This document shows positions 2,564 through 56,954 of a stretch of 64,000 nt of DNA, piece after piece. The stretch is from Cyanidioschyzon merolae. Lineage: Eukaryota. Under the pieces are notes generated by a model. That model was not told the origin of the DNA. It ran no database searches and saw only the letters and a program-made list of their open reading frames with translations. Where the stretch lies: assembly GCA_000091205.1 (NCBI GenBank), contig AP006485.2; one strand, written 5' to 3'. The translations under genes were made by a program, and so were the position numbers. Position 1 is the stretch's first letter, and each line of letters starts with the position of its first letter.

Positions 2564-3540
2564 CGTTAGGTGAGGACCTTCCCGCACCGAGCAGCACATG
2601 CGGAAGAAAGACAAAATGCGCCCCGATGTGTCACCGTGCGCTGAATGCTTCAGCGATTCGCCCGGTGGAACGGTCATTAGGTTTCACGATAGAAAACATT
2701 CCGCCGATGCAGTTGGAACACGGAGCGCACGGAGGAATGAAAAGCAGCTTTGCCCCGAGAGAATCAGCAAAAGCTCGACCGCAAGGGTAATAATGAAATG
2801 TCACGCTGTCCAAGAGAAGAATATCGCCAGACGCCAGGGGAAAAGTCTTTTGTGATTTGACGAAGTGGTTGGTGCTGCTGTATGAGCCTTCTCTACGAGC
2901 GAAAACCGAGGCATCCAAATGAATCCACTCTAGCGAGAAGAGATTGGTCCGCGCTCTCTTCGGGTTCGATCGTGGATACATGGGGCTCCCTGCCCCGCGA
3001 ATACCCATGTACATTCCGACCGATTCTTCTGGAACAAGTCTCATTGGCTGGAAAAATGAACCGACGTCCCTAAGGATCATACCGATTGAGACGTTCTAGG
3101 AACACTGTAGATGCGATTTTGGTGCAAGATGGCCGTGACTGACGTTGGAACTTTTCTGCGATTGTACCCATCGTTTTCAGGATCAGACGAATTTGCTGTT
3201 AAGAAACAGAGATGCCCCAGGTGGCTTCGATTGAGGGTTTTACTTTCAGCAAAAGATGATCAATGATCCGTTTTCTACTATTTACAGAAACCAGTCCTTG
3301 AGAATAATAGTTTTTGAGCGCAGCTCGTATACTTGTTTCGTTCAGTGGCCCTCAGTTATCTGAGTACTGCGTTATGACTTTCCTGCAGGAGCCATGCAGT
3401 CCTCTATGCACTGTTCATAAAAAATATATGTGCAATAGGCAACTTGTGTACGATCTATGCGGTAAATTGCATAGTAGGTTCGATATCCTGCCATGCACAG
3501 CAGCGCAGGTGAAATATAATCGAGGTGAAAGACCATAACG
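2564..3540 (+). mobile_element. Truncated copy (5' about 1 kb) of the same transposable-element family as 25646-27900
   Basis: Nucleotide blocks are conserved with 25646-26600 in the same order and orientation, for example 'aggtgaggaccttc', 'gtgtcaccgtg', 'ttcacgatagaaaacattccg', 'ggaatgaaaagcagct', 'ctgagtactg...gcactgttca...aatata', 'taaattgcat'. Frameshifted ORF fragments show conservative aa substitutions between copies ('WGSLPREYPCTFRP' versus 'MGSLPGEWPCTLRP'; 'FHDRKH...RRNEKQL' in both), which implies decayed coding sequence. Homology stops near 3540. Confidence 0.6.
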
Positions 3541-3739
3541 ATCTGGCGTCAAGGACGCGAATGCAGTAGCCCTCACGAACGCTTTAGATTTTCGCTGTGG
3601 ATTTCCAGTGCAAAGTCTGCTGCACATAGCCACCTAAACTTTCACCTGGAGGTGCGACCTTCTCTCGAGGAGCAGGCCTTTAGAGTGCATCCGCAAGCCA
3701 AGCGGGCACCATGGCCGAGTTTCGCTCTGTAGGCCATTC

Positions 3740-5145: not shown

Positions 5146-6132
5146 ATGACGGAAACTTCAGTTCCAGTGAGCTGCCCTGGAACAGAGTCGGAACAGGCCG
5201 GCAGAGCCGCGGCTTGCTATGGCTGCCCAAACCAAACGGCTTGTGCCGCTGGGAAGAACACAACTGTGGACCCAGATCGCGTGGCTATAGCGAACCGACT
5301 GGCTGGTGTTCAGAGAGTCCTCTTTGTCGTAGCGAACAAAGGGGGTTGCGGTAAGTCTTCTGTTGCTGCGCAGCTAGCGTTTGCTTTTGCTTCCGGCGTT
5401 GCCTGTGAAGCGGTTGACAGGGAGCTTGAAGTTGGACTTCTCGATGCTGATGTGACGGGACCGTCGATTCCGCACTTACTTTCTATCGCAGAGGAAGAAG
5501 TGCACCAATCGGCCACTGGCTGGCAGCCTGTGTACGTCCGGGGCAATCTAGCTGCCATGTCAATTGGTTTTATGCTTCCGTCAAAGGATGACGCGGTTGC
5601 TTGGCGAGGAGCGCGGAAAACGGGTCTTTTAAAACAGTTCCTGAGAGATGTCGACTGGGGCGATTATCTCGACTGGCTCATTATCGATATGCCGCCGGGG
5701 ACATCGGACGAGCACATTACGCTAACGCAAGCCTTAGCAGGGATTGCGAACACTGCAGCGCTCATTGTTGCTACTCCTCAAGAGGTCGCCCTCTTGGATG
5801 TACGTAAGCAGGTACGCTTTTGCGAGCGTGCCGGCGTTCCCATTGTGGGTATCGTCGAGAATATGTCGTACTATACGTGCCGCCATTGCGGTCATCAGGA
5901 GGAAATTTTTACGCCAACAACTGGTGGAGTGCAAGCCCTTTGCAACGACAGTGGCGTTCGCTTCCTAGGTAGGATTCCTTTGGATCCGGCACTGATGCGA
6001 GCCTCTGACCTCGGGGAGGCGATCCTAAATTACGATTGTCCCGCCCGCGATGCAATTTTCGAGCTTGCCCGACACATTGGAAAAGCTTTCTCTCCAAAGA
6101 CGATAGCAAGCCTCGAAGTGGAGAGCTCATGA
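5146..6132 (+). CDS. NBP35: Cytosolic Fe-S cluster assembly factor Nbp35/NUBP1 (Mrp/NBP35 P-loop ATPase)
   Basis: ATG verified at 5146. The N-terminal 4-Cys ferredoxin-like motif 'CPGTESEQAGRAAACYGCPNQTAC' is typical of Nbp35 rather than Cfd1. Deviant Walker A 'VVANKGGCGKSS', 'IIDMPPGTSDEH' and the C-terminal 'CRHCGH' (CxxC) Fe-S bridging motif are present. Confidence 0.9.
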   Translation: MTETSVPVSCPGTESEQAGRAAACYGCPNQTACAAGKNTTVDPDRVAIANRLAGVQRVLFVVANKGGCGKSSVAAQLAFAFASGVACEAVDRELEVGLLDADVTGPSIPHLLSIAEEEVHQSATGWQPVYVRGNLAAMSIGFMLPSKDDAVAWRGARKTGLLKQFLRDVDWGDYLDWLIIDMPPGTSDEHITLTQALAGIANTAALIVATPQEVALLDVRKQVRFCERAGVPIVGIVENMSYYTCRHCGHQEEIFTPTTGGVQALCNDSGVRFLGRIPLDPALMRASDLGEAILNYDCPARDAIFELARHIGKAFSPKTIASLEVESS

Positions 6133-7322
6133 TCGTTGCATGTTGTTTCCTGGTTTTGTACGGCTTGCTGGAAAGCGTCTCGGGCCGCTTGTGTCCAGTT
6201 GTGATGATGTAAATAGAATCGAATTCATCACGTTCTATACCGAGGCCGCTGCAGAGCTCGTGAATAACTCTCAGACCGAAATGATGAGCAAATGTGAATG
6301 GAGCTTTGTGATGCCGCTAAAATATCTGCATTATAAGCTAGGAGCGGATGCTGAAGTGGCTATGTCCTTATCTTCTAAATGCATCGAACCTGGCGGGTAG
6401 CGCACCTCTGTAAGCTGATGTTCAACACTCGAGCGGTCCGGGTTCCGGCTCCAAAGAGACCCCTATTTGGGTCCAGTGATTGCGAAAAGTCTTTTTCGAA
6501 GCAGAGCATTTTCGTCAGCAGGAGTGAAGCTTGTTTTCCTGCTCTGAACAAACATGCTGCGCATCCAAACAACCATGATGAAGCGCACGTCGGTGAGTTC
6601 CTGGTCGATGAGGATGCCACGAACGAATATTTTTCAAAGTCTGTCTCGATATAACATTCTTTACAAGATCTGGCTGTACGCTCGCTCACGGAATGCGATG
6701 TTTCTCATTTGGTTCTCTTGGTTAAATTCACAATTCGAATCATACACTCATTTGAGAATAAATGTTAGAATGCCTCTTTGAAGGGATTACATTCTCAAGT
6801 TCGAGTCTGTTCCCAATGTCATCAGAATTAGCCTTTGCGGCCTTATCTGCGACCGCTCCTATTATTCTTTGTTATCTTTGACTTGGAATACGACGGTCTC
6901 TCGTTTCCTCTTAGTCCCGCTGTCAGTGGTCGAAAGATGTTGATGGCAGCATTGAATTCCCGATTTCTGAGTTTCCAGCCGCTGGCGACGCATTTGATGC
7001 AAAAACAGTAGTTGCCATCGACGCACGGCTTGCCATTTTCATCTTTTTTGTATGCAGCCTCTTTGCGCCCTCTCGCAGCGGTGACACTTGGTTGTCCTCA
7101 GGTGTTCCTAAATATCACCCACAGCCTCTCATCCGTGGACCGCCTCGTGCTCCGTGAACGCTTGGTTTAGCGCTCGGCACATACACTTGACGGATACAGA
7201 TGGCTACTTTCGATATCCTCCACCGATTCCAGCTGCGGTGCTGTGCCCTACGATCACGTGCCTCTTACAGGTGATCTCCTCCATGAGTACCGATTCTGCT
7301 GGAGGCGCGAGTCCGCAGTTTT

Positions 7323-7438
7323 CCATTCTATTGACAATTAGTGTAACGCTATGCTGTCCATGATGAATCGTGAATTGGAACCATCCTATTGACAAGTAGT
7401 GTAACGCGATGCTCTCTATGATGAATATTGATTTGGAA
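7323..7438. repeat. 58-bp tandem duplication (2 copies, about 80% identical), intergenic
   Basis: 7323-7380 'ccattctattgacaattagtgtaacgctatgctgtccatgatgaatcgtgaattggaa' is followed directly by 7381-7438 'ccatcctattgacaagtagtgtaacgcgatgctctctatgatgaatattgatttggaa'. Confidence 0.8.
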
Positions 7439-8168
7439 GGTTAATTCTACTGATGCAGCATATGTCGACACATTTTAATGTGACCATGCCACTTTCGCGC
7501 AAGGCGATAAAGTGCACTCCAAACGAGAACATCTCTTTGGTGACTTAAGTCAGAGTCTATGATTCTTTTCAATGTAAACAGTACATGGAGGCCCCTGTGA
7601 GCATGTCCAGTGAGACGCATCATCTCGTTCTCGCATCTCTTTCCGCCGAGGACCACCAAGAGGGCAGGAAGTGTCTTCAGAACGGAATCGATGATTTGAG
7701 AAAGAAATATTCAGCGAAGTTGAGCTATAAGTCAATAAAGAAGTCGCCTCTGGGCTTCGCTGAATTTTCATGCTCGTTAACTCAGCAGCGCTAATTGCTC
7801 TGCTAGTGAGTTACCTTGAATCAGAAAGATCGAATACACAAAGAATGCAAGATTTGAGCATGCGACACGTTATTAACGGAGAATCTTGGAGGCTTCCATT
7901 CATGAACTTGATGATACTGTCGTTTATTCTACGAATTCTTGTTCGAGAACTTCCCGTATCATCTTGTTAACGTCAGAGGAACGAATTCCAGCGAAACAGC
8001 ATCTGAGGAGGCACACCGAAAAGGCGATCGAGAATCCTAAAGCTACGTATGAATCTTTAAACCCTTATTGCTGCCTTTCGAATGTCAAGATTATACGTCG
8101 AAATTTATTCTCAAAAACCCGAAAGCCAGGAACAGAACAAGCAGTTCAGTGTCCCATTTTTATCCACC

Positions 8169-8939
8169 CTAGTCATAGGTGTAAAAACCTCTTTTAGTCT
8201 TGCGCCCGAGCCAACCAGCATCAACATATTTGACCAGCAGTGGGGATGCTCTATACTTTACAGAACCCCCGGGGAGCCCTTGTTCAAGCACACGCAAAAT
8301 ATTGAGGCAAGTATCGAGGCCGATAAAGTCGGCTAGTGCCAACGGACCCATGGGCACGTTCGTTCCGAGCTTCATAATTCGATCGATATCCTTCGCATCT
8401 GCGGTCCCTTCACGTAGCGTTTCAATCGCTTCGTTGATGTAAGGCATGAGTATTCGATTCGAGACGAAACCTGGGCTATCAGACACACACCGCGCGCACT
8501 CTTTTCCCATTTTACGAGCAAGTGACTCCGTGACTTCAACAGTATTTTCCGACGTTCGTAACCCACAGACGATCTCTACGATATTCATTCGTTGTACGGG
8601 GTAAAAGAAATGCATGCCAATGAAGTTTTCCGGAAACTTCGAAGTAGCCGCGAGTCTCGTAATCGATAACGACGACGTGTTACTCGCCAAGACGACATGT
8701 TCCGTCCAGACTCGGGCTTCTTCGAGAGCTTTGTAAACAGCAACTTTTGTCTCGAACACTTCTGGTACGGCCTCGATAAGGAATTCGGCACCTCGAAGGA
8801 CGTTAATGTCCTTTTCGGGTTCTTTTACGGGATCGTACCGTAGGACGGTGCAACCAGACCTCTGGCCGAGGACTTCAGCAATACCGGAGCCCATCTGACC
8901 CGCAGCGCCCAGTACGCCGACAATCCTAGGAACCTGCAT
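8169..8939 (-). CDS. 3-hydroxyacyl-CoA (3-hydroxybutyryl-CoA) dehydrogenase, short-chain HADH family
   Basis: N-terminal Rossmann 'VGVLGAAGQMGSGIAEV'. 'LASNTSSLSIT', 'GMHFFYPVQRMNIVEIV', 'PGFVSNRILMPYINEA', 'GPLALADFIGLD', 'GWLGRKTKRGFYTY' are colinear with the Hbd/HADH family. Confidence 0.85.
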   Translation of the reverse strand: MQVPRIVGVLGAAGQMGSGIAEVLGQRSGCTVLRYDPVKEPEKDINVLRGAEFLIEAVPEVFETKVAVYKALEEARVWTEHVVLASNTSSLSITRLAATSKFPENFIGMHFFYPVQRMNIVEIVCGLRTSENTVEVTESLARKMGKECARCVSDSPGFVSNRILMPYINEAIETLREGTADAKDIDRIMKLGTNVPMGPLALADFIGLDTCLNILRVLEQGLPGGSVKYRASPLLVKYVDAGWLGRKTKRGFYTYD

Positions 8940-13559: not shown

Positions 13560-14290
13560 GGCTTTCTATGAGCTGGGCTCTTGCGTCCCTCCGGCACCCT
13601 GGCAGCAGTCGAAGGATGCTCGTGGCTGCTTTAGCGTCGACCTTTAAACGGTTCGAATCGTGCTCGATGCATCCCATACACGGATGGCAGTCGGAAACGG
13701 CAACGCGCTCGCCGCTGCCTCTTCTCCGTCAACATCCCCGATGCGCTCTTCGCACCAGTGGCACATGGCTCAGGTCAGGTGTCCCTGTACGCCACCCGCT
13801 CCGAGCACATCATCCGCGGAGCGGCTGTGGCGCCTCCACGCTCACGCCAGTGTATCGTGCATGCCGTCGGCGGGCACGGAAGCCTCACCTCGATGCCGTC
13901 CGCGAGTGCTGCCCCCGCCGCGGTCCCCGACAATCACGAGCTTCTCCTGGGCCATCAGCTCGGCGAGTACGCTGTACACTGGGCGTGCAGGCACACGCTC
14001 TTCGATTCCTTCCGGGGGATCCGCGCAAGGCGGTGCTGCGCCTCACGAAACAAGCACCCGTGATGTGGCATCCGGGGCGGACGCCATGTCGGACTGTTTC
14101 GGTCTGTGTGCGCTCCCTTCGTGCCGAGCGGTAACGCATGCTCGGCTCGGAGCGAACGCTGCGATGACTAGAGTCGCAGCTGAGGGCGCATGCCGATGCA
14201 GACAGACGAGAGGGGAGCGCTGGAGCACGCGCACCCCGTGGGGCGCATCATTCTGGTGTGGAACGGTGCATCGCTGACGGCAGCGAAGAG
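13560..14290. other. GC-rich island (visibly much richer in G+C than its flanks) with long overlapping ORFs in several frames and no recognisable product
   Basis: Two plus-strand ORFs (13568-14134, 13660-14277) and two minus-strand ORFs overlap in different frames. Translations are Arg/Pro/Ser/Ala-rich and match no family, which fits compositional ORF inflation rather than proven coding. Confidence 0.4.
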
Positions 14291-24353: not shown

Positions 24354-24956
24354 TCAGCATTTGTGCGTTGCAGTGACCGCCACGCCGTCGTCATCTACGG
24401 CATTCGTCCGTGCACTCACATAAATCCCATCCAAAAACTTACGAATATCTTTGTTTTTCACAAGGCATGTTTCGTGGATGAGAGCAGCAGACTGTGAAAC
24501 TTCGTTGATATCGTTTCCAACGACGAGCAAGCAATCCTTCACAGTGTTCGAACGGTAGACCTTCGCGCCACCGAGCATTCGCACTCGACGGACTCGCTTC
24601 TCTCCCAGAAAGTTGCGCACTTCTAGAACTGTATCGTTCTCGGATATCGTCATGTTCAGCGGGAAGTGCGCGTATACGGCTCTAAGCTCGTAACAGTAAC
24701 CCTTGATGACGCCGGTAAACATGTTCTTAAAAACGGAGGCCGCCGTCATAATAGTTGCCAGATCCTTTCGGCGTCCTTGCCACACCTGGATGCGCACTTT
24801 GCGCCCCTTTTCCAAAAGCGTAAAGTCAGCAGGTATATGTTTAAGGCTCTTCCGGAGTTCGCCCCGGGGCCCTTTAACGAAAACCTCCCGCTTCTTAACG
24901 CGTACCGTCACGCCTTCAGGCACCTTCAAGGTTTCGCTCGCAAGGATGGCCCTCAT
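24354..24956 (-). CDS. RPL9: 60S ribosomal protein L9 (uL6)
   Basis: Near full-length colinearity with eukaryotic RPL9: 'VKGPRGEL', 'AVYAHFPLNMTISENDTVLEVRNFLGEKRVRRVRM', 'KNKDIRKFLDGIYVS'. Confidence 0.95.
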   Translation of the reverse strand: MRAILASETLKVPEGVTVRVKKREVFVKGPRGELRKSLKHIPADFTLLEKGRKVRIQVWQGRRKDLATIMTAASVFKNMFTGVIKGYCYELRAVYAHFPLNMTISENDTVLEVRNFLGEKRVRRVRMLGGAKVYRSNTVKDCLLVVGNDINEVSQSAALIHETCLVKNKDIRKFLDGIYVSARTNAVDDDGVAVTATHKC

Positions 24957-25645
24957 TTTTCGTTGTAAATCTTGATAATGCCGCGAATCGCCAAATAACT
25001 TTCACAGGAACCACCCTATGAACCACCCGAGCAGTGGAGAAGCTGACTTGCGAAAAAACGGGGTACGCGACGGATGTACAGCCGAGAGTCGTGGCTGCTT
25101 CGCAGGACGGCGAAAATCCGGACGTGGCTAAACGGGACAAAAATACCCTCAGCTGCGCTGCCTGTACGATAATGTATAAAAAGGACAAAACACCCACGGG
25201 TGCGCTGCCGATTTTGATGCTGAACATGGTAACCAATATCCTACGACCATGAAGTTTAAATTATTACCACATGCAGAGGTCTGCCAGCCTTTTCAACCGG
25301 ACCCCTGCCGCCGGTTTCAGCCTTACCTCGTATACTTCGATCCTGAGAGGTTCCCCACAAAGCTGGCTCGCGCCAGCTCCACGAGTGTCATATAAAGCAA
25401 CGCATATCGTCTGATATTGATGGCGGCGTCAAAGTACCGGCTCATGGACCCCATGCGTTTGTTGCGTCTGATGGGACTCGGCTCTACAAAGATTCCTTGA
25501 ATTCGTGCCGTCTTTGCCATCTGGTGCTCTGTCAGCTCTCCGTACTCATATATCACGGAAGCGCTCCGCTGCGTTTTGTCCGTCTGGACCTTCTGAAGTG
25601 TGCGCCCTAGGATATCCCTCGGATTTTTTAAAGTGAATGCACTTC

Positions 25646-27900
25646 TTTATAGCCTCAGGTGAGGACCTTCGCAGGGGAGAAGGACTTGCTGAAGAACGAC
25701 GAAATGTGCCCCAGTGTGTCACCGTGTGCTGAGCGCTTCAGCGAATCGCCCAGAGCAGCGATCCTTACGTTTCATGATAGAAAACATCCGTTCGATGGAA
25801 ATGAACCATGGAGTGTACGCAGGAATGAAAAGCAGCTCTACCCCGGTGGAATCAGCACAATGCTCGAAAGCAAGGGGAATGTTCAAGTGCTATGTAGTGC
25901 AACAGAACGAAGTCGCCAGACGTCAGGAGCAACATCTTCAGTGATTCTACAAAAAGGTGCTGTTGTATTAGGCTTCAATGCGGGCGAACCCGAGGCCGCT
26001 ACATGAATCCACTGCAGGTAGAACAGATGATGTCGTCTTTCTTTTCCAAATCGATCGCACGTACAATGGGCTCTCTACCCGGCGAGTGGCCATGTACGCT
26101 CCGACCGTTTCGTCCAAAGCAAGTCTCATCGACTGAGAAATCAAACGGATATCCCTGTGCTTCTTACCGATTGCAACGTTCCATGAACGCTGTACGTGCG
26201 TTTCGGTTCATGATGGCCGTGTGTGAACTAGGGCTCTGTTTTTTGTGACTGTATCCGGGTATTTGCAGGACCACACAGACAAGGTGTTGAGCAACAGAGA
26301 CGCCCGTGATGGCTGCGATCCTCGCTTTTGCCTTCCGTGAGATGCTCAACGTGTCGTTTTCAACCATTGAATGCAAGCAGTTTTGAGGATTCGGTTTTTG
26401 GCTTGGATCGCATTTACTTTTCTGTGTTCCTCTCGCATCTGAGTACTGGGATATGACAGACCTGAAGGGGGAATGGAGTCCACCTTGCACTGTTCAGTGA
26501 AGAATATACATCCTGCAAGCAACTCATCTGTGCTCAATACGATAAATTGCATCCTGATTTCGATCTTCTGCTTTAAGCTACAAAAACAGCATTCGAATGC
26601 TTTCAGCGGTGGTCAAACAAAATTGAGTTGAAAGACTATAAAATGGAACAGTGAACATTTTATGCTGTTCCTGCTCTACAATCCTTTCCGAAATTTTTTC
26701 AGGTCGACGAACTCGACCTTCGAAGTGCGACAACAAAGAGTTACGAATCCACACCTAATTTAACGATTCTCGATTGTCTCTTCAGCGTGACTCCTTTGAT
26801 GTTTTTCAGTTGGAATTCGCCAGGTCACCGGAATGAAATTGAGTTGCCACGCAATCGAGCAAGAATTCATAAAAAGCAGAAGTCATTACAAAATCTATGC
26901 AAACAATTCTCCACTCCGCTCCTTTTTTTCATTCCGGACGCTCGAATCATGCCCAGTTCCGATCTTTCTGTTTCAAGGCAATTTGCTGGTGCAGCAAGAA
27001 TTGCAGCTGGATTGACATTGAAAACAAACTTCGATGTCATCCCTTCAAGACTTTTTCACAACCTCAAGCCGAAAGCTCACTGAACTTAGTACGCAAAATA
27101 ATCGATGCCGTTCGAGAGCCAAGTCGCACTCTTTTCATCGAAATCGGCGAAACGGCGTTCTACAGCAGCTAGATACCTCTCACAGGACTTGCTCACACAG
27201 GCTCCTGTCTCTTCTGTTTTCTTAGAGAAGCATCATGGCCTCGGGCTTTAGCTATTACCGCAATCGTCTCGAGGAAACACTGCCTCATCGTTTTCCAACA
27301 ACGGAGCGCCGACAGTTTGAAACTTCTCGACTTGTTCTTGACCTGAATAATCGTACGGGTACTTGTTTCATCATGGATAATATCGCGTTCCACAAATCCT
27401 GTATTGAACAGAACAGCGTGCGCCTGCTTGTACAGCGGACACAGTACTTGCCAAGGGGATCGCCAGGAGGATGCCCATGCTCTTATGGGACGGCTCCGAG
27501 CGCGGAAACGGAAGCGAGCATCGAGAGCTCTCTTCCGTCTCCGTCGAGGGCACGAACCGAATTCTGGAGCAAGCTGTCACGCGCCATAGTGCAGTTATCC
27601 AGGGAAAGGTTGGGTATTCTGTGGGAATATCTGACTACAGCAAACAGTCACCGCCGCGAAACGCCCACCTAGGCTTCACAAAAAATGCGAATGCCAAGCG
27701 AGGCGTAGATTGCAAATGCCACGTGTGTATCACATGCTCCGATAGCAGCAAGAAACCGAGAGATAGGGATTTTAATGGTGCCATCAACATCTTTCGACTA
27801 CAGACAACGGAGCTGGAGGGAAGCGAGACACGAGCATATTTCATGCTGGAGATGAGTGGCACGAAAAACGGAAAAAATCGAAGAACACATTAGCAGAAAT
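25646..27900 (+). mobile_element. Most complete copy of a decayed TnpB/Fanzor-like transposable element (about 2.25 kb, non-autonomous pseudogene copy)
   Basis: The 5' 1 kb is homologous to 2564-3540. The 3' part carries frameshifted TnpB/Fanzor-like coding remnants (see pseudogene 26873-27893). The 27.0-27.45 kb segment is about 75% identical, in reverse orientation, to the 690-bp repeats at 42931 and 56955. Confidence 0.6.
26873..27893 (+). pseudogene. TnpB/Fanzor-like (IS605 OrfB-family RuvC nuclease) pseudogene, split over three frames
   Basis: Frame A (26873-27172): '...LNLVRKIIDAVREPSRTLFIEIGETAF' resembles the TnpB 'LHKISrkiVd.A...ivlEdL' RuvC-II block. Frame C (27471-27893): 'KVGYSVGISDYSKQ' resembles 'G..v..v.p.yTSq', and 'CKCHVCITCSDSSKKPRDRDFNGAINIFRL' is an OrfB zinc-ribbon plus RuvC-III 'DRDvNAAiNI' signature. 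The pieces are joined only by two frameshifts and the RuvC-I motif is not recognisable, which indicates decay. Confidence 0.55.
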
Positions 27901-29047
27901 GCTACTAATGATGACAATTGGAAAGCCCAAAACTTTAATGCATACACTCGCGATAGACAAGTGGACTCGTTCCATTTTATTCAGGCATGAGTATATGCGC
28001 CATATCCTGCGGCCGTGCGTTTTGCTTAGAAAGACTGCGGGCGATTAAATTATTATTAAAGGTCATCCTTCAACAAAAGAGAACTGGATGAGCAACCTGC
28101 CTCGTCACTTGGGCCTCTCTGCTCGCTTAGTCGCCTCTTCAAATGGAGCGCGTCACCAGAACATATTATGGTCGAAGATCGCGGTGCTTGCCGACGTCCA
28201 GTCGGAGCGTGTACATTTGTACGAGAGGCTCAGCATGTGCCTTTTGGGGCCCTTGCGCTTTCGGCGCAGGATATTTGCAGAGCAGCGCCATTCTGAAGCA
28301 GCCCTGACGTACTTCGGAGCGCGAGCCCAGCGATGAACGCCCCCAAGCGAGGCATCTGATAACTGTCGTATATATATTCAACATGCCACGAAACAATGAA
28401 TAGATGATGGACGTCTCCGAGCGATACATCTCACAATTGCCGCATGTAAGTTTGAGCTGCGAATGAGGTTCGCCGGCGAGCGCAAGCGGCGCTCGTCCAC
28501 GAGAACGTCCCCGTCCGTAGCGGAAGAAGCAGCGCGCCTCTTTCTGAGCTGGTCGGACGCATACAGCTTCAATACACCGGCAGGTTGCATCGCAAAAGCG
28601 GCCCTCTTCCCGCTCGAGTACTGCTGAGGCGCCTGAAACGCCCGAGAAACCGGATGCTCGATGTTCCGCGTCGCAGGAAAATGTGTCGTTCTTTAGATTG
28701 AGCCGCTATTCCTAATCAGGATGCAGGATCGGGTCTCGTGGAACGTGACGACCTCTATAAAGGAGCAGAGGTATCTTACTTGCTTATTGTCTCCGTTTAT
28801 GCATCCAGAGTAAGCGCTTTTCAGAGTCGATGGCTCGTGGTAGATCCGGCAAATTCGCTGTCGGCACTTGACACGGCGTTTCTGAACTACGGCAGACAGT
28901 GGCAGGTCAGATGTTGTTTGGATTCGGATTGACCAGTCTGATCGAAACTAGGGCATACGAGCGCTAACGTACTGGATCCTCTCACTTTGGATAGCGTCTA
29001 GTTTATGCTGAGATCCACCAGTGGGTTGAAAGACTAGAGAGCACGTC

Positions 29048-31273: not shown

Positions 31274-31446
31274 GGAAAACGGATCTGGGCTGCCTCTATC
31301 CAAATCGGGATATTGCGGCCCGATAAAGTTTCTGCCTCTGCATTCTATGTAGCGCGCGGCTATTGTACTACTGACCAGTGCGTGAAGAAGAAGATTTGGG
31401 TGTCATGGAAGTGTTTTTGCATGAAGCGATGCAAGTCTCCAAAGGA

Positions 31447-31450
<4 letters not shown>

Positions 31451-31483
<33 letters not shown>
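31451..31483. repeat. (CTG)11 microsatellite in the convergent 3' intergenic region
   Basis: A perfect CTG x 11 run from 31451 to 31483. Confidence 0.95.
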
Positions 31484-31659
31484 AACTTTGCGAATTCTAA
31501 TGCTTTTCTGCGTTGGAAACACCCACTGCGCGCGTTTCGATGATCGGTTTTGCTTATGTACTACAGTGCTGTTCCGTACGTTGCCGCTGCTGCTTCTAAA
31601 GTGGGCGAATCCAAATGCTGTTCTCTGTAGGAAACGCTCACTGTGCGCGTCTCTGTGCT

Positions 31660-35115: not shown

Positions 35116-36156
35116 GAGATAAATTTTGGCGGAGTACACACTGGTTTGGTGTTTTGCCACACGGCAACGGAACGAAGCACCGTTCCCGTCACGTCCAGCT
35201 AGACCGATCATCAGGTGCCGTGGAGCCATGATTCGTGAACGGATGCGTCGGTTTTGGTTGCCAGCGTCTACAGCAAAGGCGCGTAACGACGCGAGCGAGA
35301 GCGTCGACCCTGCATCCCGTGTGTGCACGGGACGTCGCGCGCATCTCAGGTGCCCTGTGGCAGCGAGTACCATGTAGTCAACCCCGAGGACTTGCTCCAT
35401 AGATCCTAGCCGGTAACGAATACTGCAGTTAGCGCCTTGCGTGGACCACAGCTCGCGTCTGGGAGAAAAAATCTTTCATGAAAGGTGGTCACAGAAACTA
35501 GACGCTGGTGAGCTTTCTGAATAGTCCACGCCTTTCTTTCATAGAATAGATGCTTCCAGAGAAGCGAATGACTTCTTTTGCTTGCATGCCACCAACAGAG
35601 TTCAATGGATTTTTCGTATGTTTGCAGTGAATCATTACCAACACCAGCGAAAGCACCGCGAGCATCACCATCATCACCCATATTGTAATTATCATCATCA
35701 TCATCATCACCATTAGCAGCAGCAGCAGCATGCACCTTCATTGCAACCAAGGGTGCCCATTGCCTCCAACAGAGCTGCCATTTCTTGCACAGCATGCGTG
35801 ACGCGCATGCGTGGCGGCGCAGCGCTGGCGGATCAGTTGCACGCATGCGATGCGCCATATCGTCGTCAGGGCCCTACATCTCCATCATGGACAAAAAGGT
35901 AAAGCGATACAGTCCAACACCTCCGTCAAGAACAAAAAAGAACGTAAGAATGTGCTGAGCGTTGATGGACGCTCGGTCCGATACCGATGACAATCACGAT
36001 ATCAGGGATCGATGGTCAATGGAAACCTTTTGACATCAGAAAAAAATTGCCTCATCGCCGATTGCGGTGTCGATCGACATCCACTTGTCTTTTTTTTCAA
36101 GATATATACATTTATGTCTAGATAGAAAGTGGCGTTCAGCGGCCGCGTAGCAGGGC

Positions 36157-42105: not shown

Positions 42106-42930
42106 ACGATCCTATGCCTGAGATGCCTTACGCCAAGCGGGGAGCATCCTTTTAGTTGCAGTGTCGCGCTTTGTCGAAGGCGAGGAGCATTGGACGGCGT
42201 ACTTTTCAGGTTCGGTGGTACGCGAGCATTCCGCTGCATTGCATCTTCTACATTCGTGTTCGAATAAAATGGGACGGACCCTGAACCTGGGCGTAAACGC
42301 TGACGTTTGGATCTCTTCGCACTGCCATCAATAATAGTCTTTGTGGGGTTTTTCTTGCGACTGCTTCTGCTCCCTCTTCCATACCCGACTTTGAACAAGA
42401 TGCTCAATGCTTTCCTGGGAGCTAACTTGTCAACAGGTGAAGGGTGTTTATGGCAGTGTGCAAATCCTGATTTTGCAGCTACAACCTGTTGTCGACGCAG
42501 TCAATACGTAAGTAAAAATTGCGATCGACGTAGCTGTTCCATTGTTGAGCTTGTTTGTACAAAGGCGCTGTGCGACCTTTCCATCAGTCATATCGTGTTA
42601 TGGTCAGGTGTGTCCCTCTATATCCACCTCATTTCCTCCGTGCGCCGCGCTGGGGCGTGGAAACGCTTGCTTCACGCCCCCGTACATGTCCATGACTGCT
42701 ACTGAAGGGTACGCTCCATGCACGCCTCCTTTTTTTTGCAGCGTCAACTGTACCCCACGATCACGGGGCTTGTGCGTGGCAATCCCCTCGGCAAGTACAC
42801 TATTCGATGCATACGAGAGTGCACGCAGTTCCGTTCGATAGCGGATTTGCGAAACGCAATGTTATTGACGATGGAACAATTACCAGAAACAAGATCCAAG
42901 CTGGAAAACGGGTCAAGAAATTTCGGTCTG

Positions 42931-43613
42931 TCTACGCTCCCTTCGTGCGAAACGGTGACGCACACCCTACTGGAATCGATCGCTCGGATGACTCCAGTTC
43001 TAGTACCGAATCCTTTCCCAAGCAAACAGAAGAGGCGGGAGCCCCGCAAGCAGCGCACCACATCATACGGTACCCTGCTGCTCTGGAATGCCGTCTCGCC
43101 GATGAGCGCGAAGAGACAAGAATTTGTCTTTCGAATGCAATGGACCATTCCAAGCGACAAGTGACGTGAGCAATGGTCATGAGTTTGTGAACGAGTCGTC
43201 CATGGACGACGTCAAGGTTCTGGTATCGCTGGATAATCTAGGGACACAAATCGCTTCGCCCCTAGGGTGCCGTGAGAGAGCAACACTGAAGCGTTGAAGA
43301 GTGCACGATTAACGCGTGCTTCACGTACGGAACTTTAAAGCGTGGGAGCTTGAACCAGTGACTCGGATCATTATATCGAATATTCTACGAATCTTTATTC
43401 GATTGCGTCGTGAATCCCCCCGATCCCTGTAACGTAACAATTTCCAGCGGTACAGCGTCAAAGGAGGCATTCCGCGAAAAAATGGCGACCGATCGACAGC
43501 AAACTACTCATGAATCTACACGCTCCTACCTGCTGCATTTCGCATGTCGAGACTGCGGAACTGCAAGTTCGGATAAATGGAAAAACAGGAACATAGAGAG
43601 CAGTAAAGCACTG
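42931..43613 (-). mobile_element. 690-bp internal fragment of the TnpB/Fanzor-like element family (copy C), about 99% identical to copy D at 56955-57646
   Basis: Minus-strand translation '...CLFALIGETAFQSS...LDLVSGNCSIVNNIAFRKSAIERNCVHSRMHRIVYLPRG' is colinear with plus-strand frames of 27100-27450 ('LFIEIGETAFYSS...LVLDLNNRTGTCFIMDNIAFHKSCIEQNSV...YLPRG'). Nucleotide identity to that copy is about 75%. Boundaries were defined by loss of identity with copy D. Confidence 0.6.
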
Positions 43614-45452: not shown

Positions 45453-48400
45453 AGGCGTTCAAGCGTACCTGCGACATACCCGAGAAGCAACAGGCCTGAC
45501 AAGCGCTCCGCTGCAGTGCGTTTCTACGGGCGACGCAGGCGGCGCTGCACGTCGACGGTGGGGTGGCGGCGGTGCTGCAGCGACGGGGAGCACGACACAG
45601 GCCTTGTCTACGCTTGCTTGATGCTTTCAGAGGTTCACAGAACTGGATAGGTCCATAGTCGTGGTGTATATACGGGGCTTTGTTCTGTGGAGGTACCGAC
45701 GTTCCCTTTCTGTGAATCGGCGGGCGTGTATTCGATGTGATCGAATGTTAGACTACGAGTACGGTTGAATCCTCGGACAGAGCGATCGTCTGCGGTGGTT
45801 ATGGATGCGATTCTTTAGTCGTTCTGGAATGCGGACTCCTACCATATCCATGACCTACTCTTAAGGGGAGTATCCAATCAATCGACGCTACCCCGGCGGA
45901 TGAATGTTTTCACGACAGGAGTTTTCACGGGTTTCAGCATGATTCGCAGACTAAGCACGAAATCATATTTTAGGAGTTTCGCTCTGTACAAAACTGCTGG
46001 TCGCTCCGCAAGCACGAAACATCTCCCGATATTCATAGAGACTCCGATATTTCGGTGCAGAACGTGCTCGCACCTGTGGCTGCCAGTGGCATCATTCCAA
46101 AGCGTGCCTGTCATTGTCGATTGCCCCGTTATCTGAGGTTCAGTCAGCATCCGCTGTACCATGATGTGCTTCGGTCTCTGCTTTTCGCGCGTCTGCTTCG
46201 CTGTCCGCTTCACCGGGCACCCTGACTCGTGGAGCGCGTACGTCGACCCAGACGCATCGCTGGGAATCGTGCCGCATCCATGTGCATCCACAGTTGTACG
46301 CTCTCGTGGATGGAGCAGGAGTGCAGCCTTGGCATGCTATAGCGCATCGATTGCTCTGTGGTATCACGAAACGACACGATACGAACGATCGAAGGTTTCC
46401 TTCCCCGTCGCATGAAAAGCGTTGGTGAATGCACGCTTGTCGCCTGGGTAGCACTGGAACCGGTGGCGACCCAGCGCTGTCTCATTGACTCTTGCCGGAG
46501 ATCGTCCGTACGCGCCATTTTGGACGTCTCGGGATGCTCTAGGTGAAGCATCCGAAGCACTGGTGTCGGCGCGAGACTGTACGCAGAGCGTCGAGCTGCA
46601 GGATGGGTGGCTAGGGGCTATGGCGCCTCTGCTGCATCTCCTGGTATGCCGCATGGCGTTTATGACGCTCGACTCTCGATGACGGTGCGCTCTGGGAAAC
46701 TCGAGCCGCTTCATCTGCTTTCACCCAGGATGCAAGGCTCTGTCCTTTTGATCAATACCTATGGCGACGGGCACGACACGCCCACACAAGTAGGCATCCA
46801 AAGTCTTTCTCCAGTACTACCTCGAAGGGTGGAACGTGATTCTCGAGTTTCGAGGTAGGCATAGGTTTCAAAAAGGGCATGCACAGGGATATGAGGTCGC
46901 TTTCGATTTTCGATGTAAGCATCTTTCCATTTCCTCCATGTACTCGATAAATCTTACACAAACTCCGCCGACGCTCTTCTGCCGAGCTGCTCGAATGCTT
47001 CGTAGTTGATCGCAGAGACCAGGTGCTTCTTCGGCACCGACTTGTCTCGGCAAGGTGGCATGGCAGTGGTCGCTATACTTCATGTCCGTGACCTTCGTGG
47101 GATTTCGCACGTCGTGGATGAAGGCTACGACAACAACTCTCCTTTTCTACCTATGTCTAGACGGTTACTCAAGTACCTCTTCGTCACCTTCTCCGTCGCG
47201 AGCATGTCCACGGACTGAAGCTCGCCTTGCCGACCCCGCTTCGCACACGAACACTGAAACAGCACAGCAGTACAGGGCTGGTGAACCTCGAAACGACATG
47301 TCGCTGAATAGTGCCGTAGAGCCGAACGTCCCGTCTATGGATCCGTTCGCTCAAACGGGGCTATTGACAGCAACGCAAGGCGCTTCCTACGGGAAAGAAG
47401 CGGAGAGCACCCGCTTCCACCGCCAGCAGCTCAACGCCAGTCTCAGCTGCGTGCTCCTTCACCGCTTTCGAGTGAAGCAAAGTGACGTTTTCGAAAAACA
47501 GGACAAGAGAATGTACGGAGGCGAATCGAAGACGCATGCTTTCACGAAGAATGACTTGTTGAACGAGCCCATCTGTTTGGCGACCTGTGTGCGACCAAGC
47601 GACTGCATAGCCGGCACCGCTGCTACTATCGGGTGTTCGCTGGTCTCCTCTTGAAGAACTGCGGTTTGCGACTCTTTTTGAGAACCGGTGTCATACAGGT
47701 TTACCAATTTCTTCGACTCAATCCTTATCGAGTGAGCAGAAACTTCGCCCTTGAAATCTATGCACTCTCGTATCCGTCCGGAATCGATCACTCAAGTCGC
47801 TCTATGTGCAGTGCCCTCTCCCGGGGGAGCGCACGTTGCTTGTTGTCAGAGCCTGTCCCTTTATGAAAACTCTTTTCGACGACACAAATGCTCGACACCT
47901 TAATGATACATTGATCATACTCGTTAGACCAGGTGCGGGATCGGAATCGATTGACGTGGACAGAGCCGTCTACGTCGACTTTGTTCAGTTCTGTTTTGCG
48001 ACCGACCAACTTCATGATACGGTCGAGGGAAAGCATGGTTCATCCACCTGCTGCCAATAGAATGACGGACATGTGCGGGGTCGACCATTTATCGCAAGCG
48101 ATCCACACCAGCATCAAGGATTCCGCGCTTTTTTACCAATCCACAGCATTCATTTTTATCGATGAATACCTGCGAGAACAACAAATAGCAGTAAAAGAGC
48201 GTGCTCATCCAACTGTTCCAGAGTTCACTGCTCTAATGATCAAAGACTGACGTCGCGTCACTCGTACAAGCGAAACCGATGTCCTGAGTGGTTACGCAGC
48301 ACCCGTTCAAGCGAACTGGGCGCTCTCCACCATCCCGCCAACGCTTCCATCACGCCCGGGCATTCACACAGGTCTTCGAGAGGCGGAAACAAGGAACCCA

Positions 48401-48488: not shown

Positions 48489-50675
48489 CTACGATGGCGT
48501 TCTGTCGCGAGTGGCGGTGTTCGCGCTGGTAGCAGCAGGCGGCACTAGCGGCACCCGATGCGCTTTCGACTTGTCTGCTGAACGCTCCTGCAGCTCATTC
48601 GTCGATAGGAGAGGTACTGGCGCCGGCAAACACGCACTGGATGTATCATTCGCTGCTCCGAGAACATCCACATAACGCTGACGTATGCTACGAGGTCTTG
48701 ACACCTGATTCCGAGTCGTCATCGACATTGTCGTCGTCCCTGGACACGATGCAGCAACTGGCGGCAATGCTCCAGGTAGCGTACGGGTACTTGACTCGGA
48801 GGCTACTGCACCCGACACTTGTTCCTTCGTTGCTGCTGCTGATGTTTCATTGCATCCAGCGGACTTGTGCGCCAGTTCCGCGTCGCTGGGCGGCGGCGCC
48901 AGCACAGCACCCCCTCCAGCGGCATCGACATCATCGGCAGCACATACCCAGCGACCTAGTTTGTCATCATAGTAGAATTTGTTCTCCAGACCCAGATTGG
49001 CCTGCTTACGGGCAAACAGGCCCCCGAGTATGCGCAGGGGTAGCAGACGCGACAAACCCTTCGCTTGTGGTGCCTCTGCTGATGCTGATGCGGCGGGTGG
49101 CTTCGTATCCGTAGCTGCTGGACAAGCAGCACGCTGTGGCACTTCATGGACTGCGACGCGTTCCTGGTGAGGATGCATTGCTGACGCAGGCAGCACCCTT
49201 GACTCGGTATCGGATCGTGACGATGCAGCAGCGGTATCCGTAATGTCTGGTGACGTAGAGGTAGCGCGCGCTGCAGGTGCATTTGCAAGCACTTGTGCGC
49301 GCTGCGAGGTACCAGAGTGTGTCGTGCTTGACCGATTTTCACTGAACGAGGCATTTTCGTTGCCGCCGTAACCAGCGTTCGACGAATGCTCCGCTGCTGG
49401 CGGTCTAGGAGCAGACAACGCTGGCGACGATGCCCATGACTGCGAGCAGGTCTCAGCGTCGGCTTCGACCGGTACCCGCTGCGTATCGCGTGCACTACTC
49501 GAGAACTGCATCTCTGCATCAGGCTCGCCGCAGTTGCTGTTGCTAGCACCGGCGGAATGATAAGACCCCGGATAGGGGCAGGGCTTCCAACGTTCTTGCT
49601 GTTGTTCTTGCTGCTGATCATCGTGCAACCCTGCCGATACGATGCTCAGCTGTTGGAAATCAGCACGTACAGCACGCTGCGGAGAAGCAACAACCTCGTC
49701 GACGCTGCTCGTGAGCCTCGCAGAGGCCGGTGTTGCATCCACGACAAGACGCTGCGTCGTTGCCTCTGCCGCCCTAGGCGAGCAGCGCAGATCCCCGTCA
49801 CCTGTGGCAATCGATCCGCGATGCCCCAGAGACAAGTCGCCATTCCATGTGTGGACTGCATCCAGCGCAGTTGGAGAGAGCTGCAGCGTGGATGCAGGTC
49901 CATGACTCGCAACGCCGCAGGCTGACGACGACGGCGACGACGACGACGACACTCTAACGCTTTGCTCCCTACAAGGTGAAAAGCTTGCAGCTGTCGCCTC
50001 TGCGGTGCTCTTCGCTCGACGCCACGATTGCATCCCAGGGGTTTGCGTCGCGGCTGCCTCGGGTGCAATGCAGTGCTTCCCTGGTATCGGGGTGCGCTCT
50101 TCAGCACTTTCGTTTCCAGCGATCACCGGTATCTGGTAGCGTTGCGCGAGCGCACAACGACCAACATCCTGCAACGCCTCCGCAAGCGACACATGCACCC
50201 AAGCAGTGAAGCGCGTCGAGCGTTCTCGATGCACTGCATCAGCACCAGAGGGGGCTTCTGGATCGAAGCGCTTCGACCAGAGCATCCGGTAAACCTCCCA
50301 GAAAATCAACCGGTACACCGGACAAGGCGCTGGCATCGATATGCGCGCAGCACCCGAGGCACAGGCCGCCAGTGAAGTTCCAGTTGCCTTTTGGTACAAG
50401 TCGCTGGTGCTGGCCTCGTTCAAGTGCTGGTGCAGTGTCGTTGACGTTGACGTTAAGGTTAATGATGAAAGTCTCGTTGCTGGTACCCCCGGTTCGATAC
50501 CCTTCAGAAGCAGGTCACAGAAAGCTGGTGACCAGGGCGACTCTGCGGCGATCATTCGACAGAGCATCTCACGATCTATATCCCAGTCGTGATCAGCAGC
50601 AGTCAGTGTTTCTGCGACGATAGAAAATGCCCTCGACAGTGCCGCTTGATGCCCAGACTCTACAACAGATCCCGA

Positions 50676-50717
<42 letters not shown>

Positions 50718-55448: not shown

Positions 55449-55646
55449 TCGTTTCTACAGTTGTGTTTCGAGCCCTCTCTGTTCACAACACCAAAATCAG
55501 TGGCCCTGGCACCGGAACACCGCGCAGTACCGAAGCGTTTCAGAATGTTATCGCCAAAGTCGTCGGTTCGCCTTGGCACGCGAATTCCCATGAACGCGCC
55601 GTCCAGCTTTTCAGCATAAACACACGTGACATGTTTGCGTCTCGAT

Positions 55647-56255: not shown

Positions 56256-56954
56256 GTTGTTCAATGAAAATAGCGTATGATATGCATTCGGGAAAGGTCG
56301 GGAAAAGCGTTTTGTGACGGCAATGGTCGTGTGCGGAAAACGGTCGTACATAGGCAAGTCAGTTCCTACTTCTCCAGAAGGTGCATGAACCGCACTTGTC
56401 GATGTGCATCCATGATAGAACTTGTCGAAATCTATCAACACGAATACTCTTTTGATCACTCCAATTTAGTCCAAACGTTCCCCCAGAAATACGAGGAAAG
56501 AAGCTCCAGGATGTCAAGTGTTCATGCGGTTTAAAAGGTCGGTGCTGAAGCGACTCGGATGGACGGAACAAGAGATCGCTTTCCTTCCACCGTTGAATAT
56601 ACACAATCGATTTCGTAGTGAAACGCGAATACTTTTGACAGAAAGCACAGGTAATCGTCTGATTTGATGATTCTTAATTCGACATGAATTTAGAGACCTG
56701 TACATGGCTGCTCAAAGCGGCGTTAACCATATTTCAAAGGCAAGCAACGAGTGATCATGGTGACAACATGACCCTAAATGGTAATGCAGCCGCGCGGTCC
56801 ATGAAGTATCACGAAAAAAAGCACAGGATGATTTACCATCTTATCATTCGTCGAAGCGCACTTTGAGTCTTGTCCTTGTCATGTGTTATGCTCCTGCTCT
56901 TACAGAGCGCCACTTTTTATCTTACAGAAATGGTCGAGGAGTCCTCCTCTAGGA

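Follow-up and report, generated by a model that had tools for sequence, protein, structure and literature searches.

A decayed Fanzor1 fragment and a probably unrelated transposase relic lie head to head on chromosome 3 of Cyanidioschyzon merolae

Results

The stretch of DNA that we analysed (hereafter the window) comprises 64,000 nucleotides of chromosome 3 of Cyanidioschyzon merolae 10D; three proteins encoded in it are identical to BAM79061, BAM79062 and BAM79069 of that strain. On its plus strand, positions 26638–28005 hold a copy of a repeat of ~1.37 kb, hereafter Y, which bears a relic related to Fanzor1 nucleases. The minus strand at 25200–26641 holds a composite of element X, a probable decayed DDE_3 transposase of Tc1/mariner/IS630 type, and a 3' fragment of the Fanzor1 family CMe-1A. 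Rfam families gave zero matches anywhere in the window, and Pfam searches of six-frame translations of 24400–28600, a kind of scan that is insensitive to frameshifted relics, returned only Ribosomal_L6 and a weak DDE_3 match. Three open reading frames on which the original prediction was built (26897–27172, 27235–27672 and 27471–27893) are present.

Six copies of Y were seen, five of them in the window and the sixth in a metagenome, with pairwise DNA identities of 63–72%. The copy at 26638–28005 (c1) has the same 5' and 3' limits as copies c2 (8115–6751, minus strand; located also as 6855–8124), c3 (43480–42413, minus strand; also as 42407–43480) and c6 (metagenome, L018:3217–4380); further copies lie at 13731–14021 and 56964–57502. 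A perfect 12-nt inverted repeat has its left arm, ATAAAATGGAAC, near the 5' limit of c1 (26638–26649) and its right arm, GTTCCATTTTAT, at 27969–27980, and sequences resembling these arms occupy the equivalent positions in c2, c3 and c6. Homology among the copies runs ~25 nt past the right arm, and the repeat is known as near-terminal only. The 5' two-thirds of Y (26650–27380) is conserved among the copies at the DNA level and has no recognisable coding content, with no match in Pfam, in three Fanzor1 profiles (A3, A3N and A6) or by tblastn with full-length relatives. In all, 730 nt of Y stand upstream of the Fanzor homology.

The Fanzor1 similarity of c1 occupies 27381–27893 on the plus strand and was delineated mainly with A3, a profile of 11 intact metagenomic relatives searched against all six frames of the whole window. 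It falls into three segments. The first (27381–27605; A3 positions 196–268, E 2.7e-8) comprises a helix and the RuvC-II-equivalent strand, followed by SSVSVEG..LEQA. It lies in the frame of ORF 27471–27893, contains one in-frame stop (27405–27407) and was also matched by tblastn with the relatives P0009, P0016 and P0017. Within it, the block that aligns with the TnpB RuvC-II region, QRAPACTAD...MPMLLWDG, spans 27414–27494 and retains the family-invariant G (of GYG) at 27492–27494. The second segment, WEYLTTANSHRRE (27619–27681; A3 positions 273–293), lies in the frame of ORF 27235–27672 and covers the conserved E, the [TS][TS] motif and the first zinc-ribbon CxxC, which had been predicted to be lost and reads SHRR (27646–27657); its portion at 27622–27660 aligns with WEHLTTKKCHRCE of the relatives. 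The third (27702–27893; A3 positions 330–388, E 5.1e-10 over 27702–27872; A6 positions 678–726, E 5.9e-9) contains the second CxxC (27711–27737), RuvC-III (RDRDFNGAINIF, 27759–27794), the C-terminus ELEGSETRAYF and a stop codon. Both A3 matches are far above chance. Compared with c2, c3 and c5, c1 carries indels of 2 nt and 4 nt, which account for the two frame changes.

These alignments allowed us to revisit three motif matches on which the original prediction relied. The C-terminal signature CKCHVCITC...RDRDFNGAINIF was found at 27711–27794, within the third segment. The alignments do not bear out the other two. The string GYSVGISDYSKQ (27612–27647) is read in the wrong frame: the two indels and the alignment to relatives give WEYLTTANSHRRE as the homologous sequence. 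The supposed RuvC-II block LNLVRKIIDAV...LFIEIGE (27080–27151) has no position in two Fanzor1 profiles or in seven full-length relatives, and its resemblance is due to chance. We also considered FIMDNIAFHKS...YLPRGSP (27367–27470) as a second DDE_3 transposase and rejected it, with a Pfam E of 0.12 and with homologues placing the Fanzor frame there (EFM..DERCKKRMV..QRALARAAD). A DDE_3–Fanzor fusion protein was rejected on the same grounds.

The relic in c1 preserves the residue order G, E, TT, CxxC, CxxC, RD, N. It retains the family-invariant G, E, T, C630, C633, D and N and lacks C602, C605 and P569; the Fanzor1-specific G and E (G500 and E536 of SPu-1-1p) are both kept, the latter in WEY. 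The motif of Bao and Jurka, D-X(125,275)-[TS][TS]-X-X-C4 zinc finger-X(5,50)-RD, is incomplete, as a truncated pseudogene would lead one to expect. It keeps TT (in WEYLTT), RD and the second CxxC, whereas the RuvC-I D is missing and the first CxxC is replaced. In c2 the first CxxC is intact as CHRC (7072–7100, minus strand). Overall, c1 keeps ~170 of ~700 Fanzor1 residues. Given the in-frame stop, the two frameshifts, the loss of a Zn-binding CxxC and the missing RuvC-I aspartate, c1 is predicted to be incapable of RNA-guided cleavage and activity is not expected.

This relic was identified through its relatives and through a consensus for which some frames were chosen by hand. A3 matched four independent copies (c2, c3 and c5 besides c1) in collinear order, with domain E-values of 1e-8 to 1e-19; for c2, c3 and c5, E ranged from 1e-18 to 6e-6. 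Four window copies, aligned after frame correction, led to intact relatives (P0002–P0015), which bear ETDGVGVSI and GIDPGRVNLY, and an exhaustive search yielded 786 cluster representatives, mostly of 650–850 aa, that match in their C-terminal half. Against a gathering score of 26.3 bits for PF07282 (OrfB_Zn_ribbon / Cas12f1-like TNB), c1 alone scored 12.7 bits (E 0.15–0.2), frame-corrected c2 12.3 bits, the four-copy Y consensus 23.7 bits (E 5.6e-5), and the relatives P0009 and P0010 34.9 and 27.0 bits, both above the gathering score. HMM support of the kind the original prediction anticipated came from A3; with PF07282, c1 by itself is not significant and the consensus stays below the gathering score.

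Searched against the PDB, a profile of 39 full-length members matched both solved Fanzor1 structures (PMC11423790), that of Parasitella (PpFz1, 9cf0; E 5.8e-12) and that of Spizellomyces (SpuFz1, 8gkh; E 2.1e-6); the match to a mimivirus TnpB-like protein (9b0l; E 9.7e-6) was weaker. The relatives group with Fanzor1 rather than TnpB: in the PDB search Fanzor1 scored far above the TnpB-like L79 protein, LaTranC and Cas12m. Profiles were required for these matches; phmmer with P0009 found none in the PDB. A3 matched the published CMe-1 Fanzor1 protein with E 5.6e-16, and BLASTP aligned the Y consensus with metagenomic Fanzor1 proteins at 36–43% identity over ~130 aa. An AlphaFold2 model of P0009 from an 11-sequence alignment was poor (pLDDT 57.6, pTM 0.31), and the identity is a sequence-level one.

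Taken together, the A3 matches, the relatives that pass PF07282 and the match of the relatives' profile to solved Fanzor1 structures indicate that the plus-strand relic is a decayed Fanzor1 fragment, which bears out the core of the original prediction, a decayed TnpB/Fanzor-like element at a eukaryotic nuclear locus. The last ~510 nt of Y would correspond to the C-terminal third of a Fanzor1 gene, with the RuvC-II-equivalent strand, the glutamate, the TS motif, the C4 zinc ribbon (TNB domain) and the RuvC-III motif RDFNAAINI as the parts kept. A fortuitous resemblance in a repeat of some other kind might be argued from the non-significant single-copy Pfam scores and from the chance DDE_3-like string FIMDNIAFHKS (E 0.12) in another frame of the same DNA. 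Against it stand the collinear profile matches in four independent copies and the conserved residue order, and we consider it refuted, with virtually no chance of being correct, by the relatives, the A3 matches and the Fanzor1 structure matches.

All six Y copies, a small sample, retain only the C-terminal third of Fanzor1. RuvC-I, unrecognisable in c1 as had been predicted, and the WED/REC half were found beside no Y copy (A3 positions 1–195, A6 1–597). Likewise, tblastn of seven full-length relatives against the window revealed no N-terminal Fanzor1 half at the Y copies, the N-terminal-only profile A3N gave nothing below E 0.5 in the three element-strand frames upstream of four of them, and the ETDGVG and DPGR motifs are absent from all. 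Because the WED/REC half and RuvC-I are missing from every copy, we infer that the master copy of Y was probably already 5'-truncated or chimeric, and non-autonomous.

In characterised Fanzor1 systems, the element's 3' end is transcribed into an omega-RNA, which directs a RuvC nuclease to cut DNA beside a TAM. By analogy, an intact ancestor of Y would have worked in this way, and the non-coding tail downstream of the relic (27894–28005, ~110 nt) is the place where the omega-RNA scaffold would once have ended. This tail is conserved in c1, c2, c3 and c6 to ~28005, beyond which the copies are unrelated. An AT-rich tail had been proposed at 27900–28080; the part to ~28005 is common to the copies, but no significant fold accompanies it. 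The fold z-score is −0.97 and the consensus (alifold) energy −3.75 kcal/mol with a positive, that is unfavourable, covariation term, and no stable or conserved fold was detected in the four neutrally decayed copies, which are a small basis.

On the minus strand, element X spans 25624–26641 (Pfam DDE_3, E 9.3e-5) and has its D, D and E motif blocks in the correct order: DETCFGRNGRS (26098–26130), GDFVLLHYIALEH (25879–25917) and LLFIPAYTPWFISIERMF (25782–25835). Its paralogue at 2535–3491 (DDE_3 E 1.1e-4 to 1.6e-4) is 69.5% identical in DNA over 965 nt; across these two independent copies DDE_3 (PF13358) scores 20.6–22.8 bits (E 9e-5 to 4e-4), against a cut-off of 28.6. The direct repeat that the original prediction had noted in its 1-kb 5' region is real but belongs to X. 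The supposed lack of an accompanying transposase holds only in part: a DDE_3 relic does adjoin, as part of element X on the minus strand.

Element X is fused to the 3' end of CMe-1A at 25200–25619 (minus strand; consensus positions 2742 to ~3160, CMe-1 protein residues 610–722), which holds RYFDAAINIRR at 25407–25439. Using the consensus of PMC3627910 (Additional file 2), we found 68% identity over 347 nt by blastn (piece 25269–25610; E 3.5e-29), in agreement with tblastn, and a phmmer match (E 2.6e-15), with the alignment reaching the consensus end. The composite at 25200–26641 would thus read, on the minus strand, as a DDE_3 transposase pseudogene with the final ~430 nt of CMe-1A behind it. 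The same linkage of the CMe-1A 3' terminus to a DDE_3 element appears to recur at 2096–3600. This true CMe-1A fragment sits 1 kb to the left of the Y relic.

The original prediction had taken 25646–27900 for a single 2.25-kb Fanzor-bearing element; one could also picture a Mariner-type element to which both the DDE_3 transposase and the Fanzor gene belong. The two relics do abut exactly, at 26638–26641, and Mariner elements are known to carry Fanzor1 genes as passengers (PMC3627910). In pairwise alignments, however, homology between the X copies ends at 26641 and homology between the Y copies begins at 26638; in a gapped MAFFT alignment the X homology had seemed to reach into Y, but this was gone in the cleaner pairwise alignment. 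Copies c2, c3 and c6 have no adjoining X, and the second X copy (2096–3600) has no adjoining Y. At this locus, the CMe-1A consensus and protein match only the minus-strand piece (blastn, tblastn and phmmer), and X bears a different Fanzor tail of its own, of CMe-1A type. The two relics point away from the junction on opposite strands, whereas in known Mariner–Fanzor1 elements such as PUl-1 both genes lie consecutively on one strand (PMC3627910). A single element is thus largely refuted and very unlikely. Because the homology limits differ, the parts do not co-occur elsewhere and CMe-1A similarity is confined to the minus strand, X and Y appear to be separate elements, and the region very probably consists of two unrelated, old and dead mobile-element relics, a Y copy and an X/CMe-1A composite, placed head to head.

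Discussion

CMe-1A has been catalogued in C. merolae since 2013 as a family of 3169 bp with ~150 copies, no TIRs and the class 'unknown' (Bao and Jurka, 2013; PMC3627910). Y might accordingly be a diverged CMe-1A copy: it comes from the same genome, belongs to the same protein family, shares the identical NRDFNAAINI motif and is of similar age, CMe-1A copies being likewise old at ~80% identity to their consensus (PMC3627910). Yet when the window was searched with the CMe-1A consensus and protein (tblastn, and blastn at word size 7), no similarity to Y DNA emerged; the matches, at 2096–2326, 25269–25619, 35963–36037 and 45971–46723, never include a Y copy. BLASTP of the CMe-1 protein against the Y consensus aligned only the 12 residues around that motif, compared with the ~130 aa aligned to metagenomic Fanzor1 proteins. 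Y also differs in being shorter, in lacking an ORF start and in having a short inverted repeat near its ends. A diverged CMe-1A copy is therefore improbable. Having no DNA similarity to CMe-1A, Y seems to represent another Fanzor1 lineage of C. merolae, now extinct. The suggestion of an undescribed lineage thus survives in weak form: Y is distinct from CMe-1A, yet this family is truncated and long dead, it lies in a genome with one Fanzor1 family already catalogued, and it may already be listed in Repbase under an unclassified name.

Y resembles known Fanzor1 proteins in its C-terminal motif order (helix and GYG strand, E, [TS][TS], C4 zinc ribbon, RD..NAA.NI), and its intact relatives do so in their ETDGVG and DPGR hallmarks and their length of 650–850 aa. 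Unlike these, c1 is a pseudogene that lacks RuvC-I, WED and REC and in which an omega-RNA is not demonstrable. With bacterial IS200/IS605–IS607 TnpB and Cas12f (PF07282, PF01385) the relic shares the zinc-ribbon/TNB domain and the RuvC-III motif; unlike bacterial TnpB elements, Y has no TnpA (Y1 or serine recombinase), and its host is eukaryotic. The composite containing X shows the order of PUl-1-like Tc1/mariner–IS630 elements, a DDE_3 transposase and then a Fanzor1 (CMe-1) C-terminus on the same strand. It departs from PUl-1 in that only ~120 last Fanzor codons follow the transposase, and our search for terminal inverted repeats or TA duplications at X gave nothing convincing.

The relatives raise a further possibility, that Y is integrated giant-virus DNA later spread by duplication. 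Large dsDNA viruses also contain Fanzor genes (PMC3627910), and the contigs with the relatives P0004, P0010 and P0014, which may be viral, are dense in genes, seem to lack introns and carry PIF1, Prim-Pol, SET, Skp1 and Peptidase_M16 genes. No other virus-like genes flank the window copies, however, and the copies, six or more, are dispersed in either orientation with common boundaries, as fits a repeat family. We regard direct viral origin as a slim prospect.

C. merolae has a very compact genome and is famed for its near-absence of transposons. For its annotation, the main value of our analysis is that this locus is correctly split into two unrelated relics. Fanzor1 proteins, eukaryotic RNA-guided nucleases whose natural history is thinly sampled, are under development for genome editing; the Y relic itself, dead and truncated, is of no practical use. 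On our reading, the genome holds the remains of more Fanzor1 families than the single one catalogued, and a CMe-1A terminus is physically joined to a DDE_3 relic; both points bear on how Fanzors move and enter genomes. A tentative extension, which we think possible but rather unlikely as a whole, is that C. merolae was formerly home to two or more deeply diverged Fanzor1 lineages, the second of which, Y, is closest to Fanzor1 genes on virus-like metagenomic contigs, a hint at viral delivery, and that the CMe-1A 3' terminus is common to a DDE_3 element (25200–26641 and 2096–3600). If true, this would assign CMe-1A to a Tc1/mariner-type mobilisation system.

The flagged region consists of two relics

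Three proteins encoded in the window, an Mrp/NBP35-like protein (5146-6132), a 3-hydroxybutyryl-CoA dehydrogenase (8169-8939) and ribosomal protein L9 (directly left of the flagged region), are identical to C. merolae 10D proteins BAM79061, BAM79062 and BAM79069. This places the locus in the nuclear genome of a red alga known for scarce transposons. Long CTG/CAG trinucleotide runs at 31433-31494, 50670-50728 and 58747-58877 probably encode stretches of poly-Q, poly-L or poly-A in host genes.

Comparing the window with itself, we found that the right part of the flagged region belongs to a repeat family, hereafter Y, with several diverged members: c1 (about 26640-28005, plus strand) and, on the minus strand, c2 (8115-6751), c3 (43480-42413), c4 (57502-56964; partial, 99% identical to c3) and c5 (14021-13731). 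A sixth copy lies on hot-spring metagenome contigs L017-L019. The left part (25624-26571) has a separate second copy of its own at 2535-3491 and belongs to a composite repeat present as two copies, 25200-26641 and 2096-3600 (both minus strand; about 69% identical). Homology between the composites ends at 26641, exactly where Y homology begins (26638), and elsewhere the left-hand relic (X) and Y occur apart, no other Y copy having X beside it and the second X copy having no Y. The flagged 2.25 kb thus comprises two relics head to head, and the single element of the original prediction was not borne out, half of its span being a different, minus-strand relic.

The window also contains a 683-nt direct duplication, 99% identical (42931-43613 and 56964-57646), which spans the 5' portion of one Y copy together with flanking sequence. 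Since the other Y copies are 63-72% identical, this duplication arose much later than they did and reflects a recent segmental duplication or gene conversion, not transposition. Directly upstream of the block at 56964 sits a tandem array of about 11 copies of a 76-nt unit (55496-56327), the inner copies being 97-98% identical. Within copy c2, about 60 nt are duplicated in tandem (7380-7450, minus strand), in the stretch that corresponds to c1 27360-27400.

Y carries a decayed Fanzor1 gene

The three predicted ORFs are present (26897-27172, 27235-27672 and 27471-27893), as is the string CKCHVCITC..RDRDFNGAINIF at 27711-27794. Aligning the Y copies revealed deletions of 2 and 4 nt in c1 around 27606-27700, so that the ancestral frame switches between two ORF frames: that of ORF 27471-27893 over 27381-27605, that of ORF 27235-27672 over 27619-27681 (reading ILWEYLTTANSHRRE), and again the first over 27702-27893. 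In c2 the middle stretch is still EHLRTTKCHRCE, in which the first CxxC comes after a [TS][TS] motif. By this alignment, GYSVGISDYSKQ had been picked at the right position in the wrong frame. The c1 relic is interrupted by a stop codon in frame (27405-27407) and by another beyond the shifted segment; its first CxxC is lost (SHRR) and an invariant P is replaced. It is non-functional.

Pfam searches of raw six-frame translations and single ORFs gave no significant TnpB match (PF07282, E 0.15, 21 residues). A majority consensus of four frame-corrected copies matched PF07282 end to end (E 5.6e-5) at 23.7 bits, slightly below the curated cut-off of 26.3 bits. A profile of four window copies identified an intact homologue, P0002 (E 7.8e-23), which as query retrieved P0003-P0015; P0009 (376 aa) and P0010 score above the PF07282 gathering threshold, and P0009, P0011 and P0014 carry (I)ETDGVG(V/L)SI and G(I/L)DPGRVNLY upstream. 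With an alignment of 11 intact relatives (A3) as query, an exhaustive HMMER search yielded 786 cluster representatives, typically of 650-850 aa and matching within the C-terminal 380 residues. In a profile built from 39 full-length members (A6), the residues D (DPGR), G (GYG), E, T, C, C, C, D (RD) and N are invariant. Against the PDB, A6 matched Fanzor1 of Parasitella parasitica (9cf0, E 5.8e-12) and Spizellomyces punctatus (8gkh, E 2.1e-6), structures described in PMC11423790, and more weakly a mimivirus TnpB-like protein (9b0l), LaTranC and a Cas12m. The family of Y relatives is Fanzor1. When all six frames of the entire window were searched, A3 matched c1 (E 2.7e-8 and 5.1e-10), c2 (1e-18 and 1.8e-11), c5 (1.9e-9) and c3 (5.9e-6), collinearly with the profile in each, which confirms the core proposal of a decayed Fanzor/TnpB-type gene.

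The N-terminal half is missing from all six copies

In all six Y copies, the metagenomic one included, the match starts at profile position 196-203, the helix ahead of the GYG strand. Upstream of the Y copies, neither A3, an N-terminal sub-profile, the 741-position A6 profile nor tblastn with seven full-length relatives matched the N-terminal half. The 730 nt upstream of the Fanzor homology are kept among copies as DNA only. The putative RuvC-II block LNLVRKIIDAV..LFIEIGE (27080-27151) falls inside this stretch, where profiles and tblastn found no match, and so did not hold up; by position, QRAPACTAD..MPMLLWDG (27414-27494) would be the counterpart of TnpB RuvC-II (helix, then beta-strand). 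The simplest reading is that the master copy behind the spread of Y had itself lost its 5' part or was chimeric.

Element ends and 3' region

About 110 nt 3' of the stop codon are common to the Y copies, which diverge beyond about 28005; the AT-rich tail proposed as part of the element therefore belongs to it up to this limit and not further. The arms of a 12-nt perfect inverted repeat in c1 are ATAAAATGGAAC at 26638-26649 and GTTCCATTTTAT at 27969-27980 (about 0.07 such pairs expected by chance in 1.5 kb, by our estimate), and related sequences occur at equivalent places in other copies. Since Y homology runs on beyond the 3' arm and the best inverted repeat of c2 has its 5' arm elsewhere, these are not established as terminal repeats.

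The 3' 250 nt of the Y unit folded no better than shuffles (z = -0.97), and the four-copy consensus structure of the 3' region was negligible (-3.75 kcal/mol). As neutrally decaying copies are a poor substrate for covariation, these values say little against an ancestral omega-RNA. The AAINI coding bases of c1 (27783-27795, GCCATCAACATC) can pair with a conserved 3'-tail block (27906-27920, TGATGACAATTGG), as can the same columns of c2, c3 and the metagenomic copy (4/4 copies); this was the sole conserved long-range pairing seen, and it lacks covariation.

A probable transposase relic is joined to the CMe-1A 3' end

On the minus strand, 25624-26200 encodes three DDE_3 blocks in order, DETCFGRNGRS, GDFVLLHYIALEH and LLFIPAYTPWFISIERMF (Pfam DDE_3, E 9.3e-5; the paralogue at 2631-3080 gives 1.1e-4 to 1.6e-4, both copies scoring under the curated cut-off). 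Downstream on this strand, 25200-25619 encodes ..LGRTLQKVQ..RYFDAAINIRR..SFVGN. CMe-1A, the published C. merolae Fanzor1 element, has a 3169-bp consensus and about 150 copies roughly 80% identical to it, lacks TIRs and is of class given as unknown (PMC3627910). We compared its consensus (Additional file 2 of Bao & Jurka, PMC3627910) with the whole window and obtained only four matches, all on the minus strand: 25269-25610 (68% identity, E 3.5e-29, consensus positions 2742-3088); 2158-2305; 45971-46723, a longer Fanzor1 fragment matched at the protein level (CMe-1 residues 456-698, 27% identity, many stops); and 35963-36037, a 75-nt piece of the 5' end (76% identity). The first match identifies the minus-strand piece as the CMe-1A 3' end fused to the DDE_3 relic. 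Each composite thus consists, on one strand, of a probable DDE_3 (Tc1/mariner/IS630-like) transposase pseudogene followed by about the last 430 nt of CMe-1A, and both share its 3' terminus. The composite could mark a transposase-bearing partner of CMe-1A.

Y resembles a second Fanzor1 lineage

The plus-strand relic is not itself CMe-1A, to which it has no DNA similarity. In BLASTP, the Y consensus matched the CMe-1A protein significantly over NRDFNAAINI (12 residues) only. With metagenomic Fanzor1 proteins, P0020 and P0009 among them, it shared 36-43% identity across some 130 residues. The clade-typical strings GYGTG, VPVKAM, HLTTKK and LDPGRVN gave no hits in the Bao & Jurka protein set, in which line breaks could hide some. 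Being distinct from the published CMe-1A in DNA and protein, Y appears, on these sequence comparisons, to represent a second Fanzor1 lineage of C. merolae, now extinct.

Intact relatives of this lineage lie at the ends of contigs L007 (JGI 3300028372), L009 (JGI 3300031217) and L013 (ENA ERZ27265933), which are gene-dense and apparently intron-free. Their genes (PIF1 helicase, Prim-Pol, SET, TspO, Skp1, Peptidase_M16 and a Peptidase_S74-like protein) are reminiscent of giant viruses, and the contigs are possibly viral.

Judging from its characterised Fanzor1 homologues (PMC11423790), the intact ancestor would have used an omega-RNA, derived from the 3' end of the element, to guide its RuvC nuclease to TAM-adjacent DNA, and such cutting may have favoured retention or spread of the element. 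Judged by its family, c1 would be a molecular fossil without activity. The original prediction had recognised a genuine Fanzor1 signature by eye, in an element that is ordinary in kind and dead. Fanzor1 in C. merolae was already reported in 2013; what is new within this window is modest, namely an apparent second C. merolae Fanzor1 lineage, whose nearest intact relatives lie on gene-dense, possibly viral contigs, and the fusion of a probable DDE_3 transposase relic with the 3' terminus of CMe-1A.
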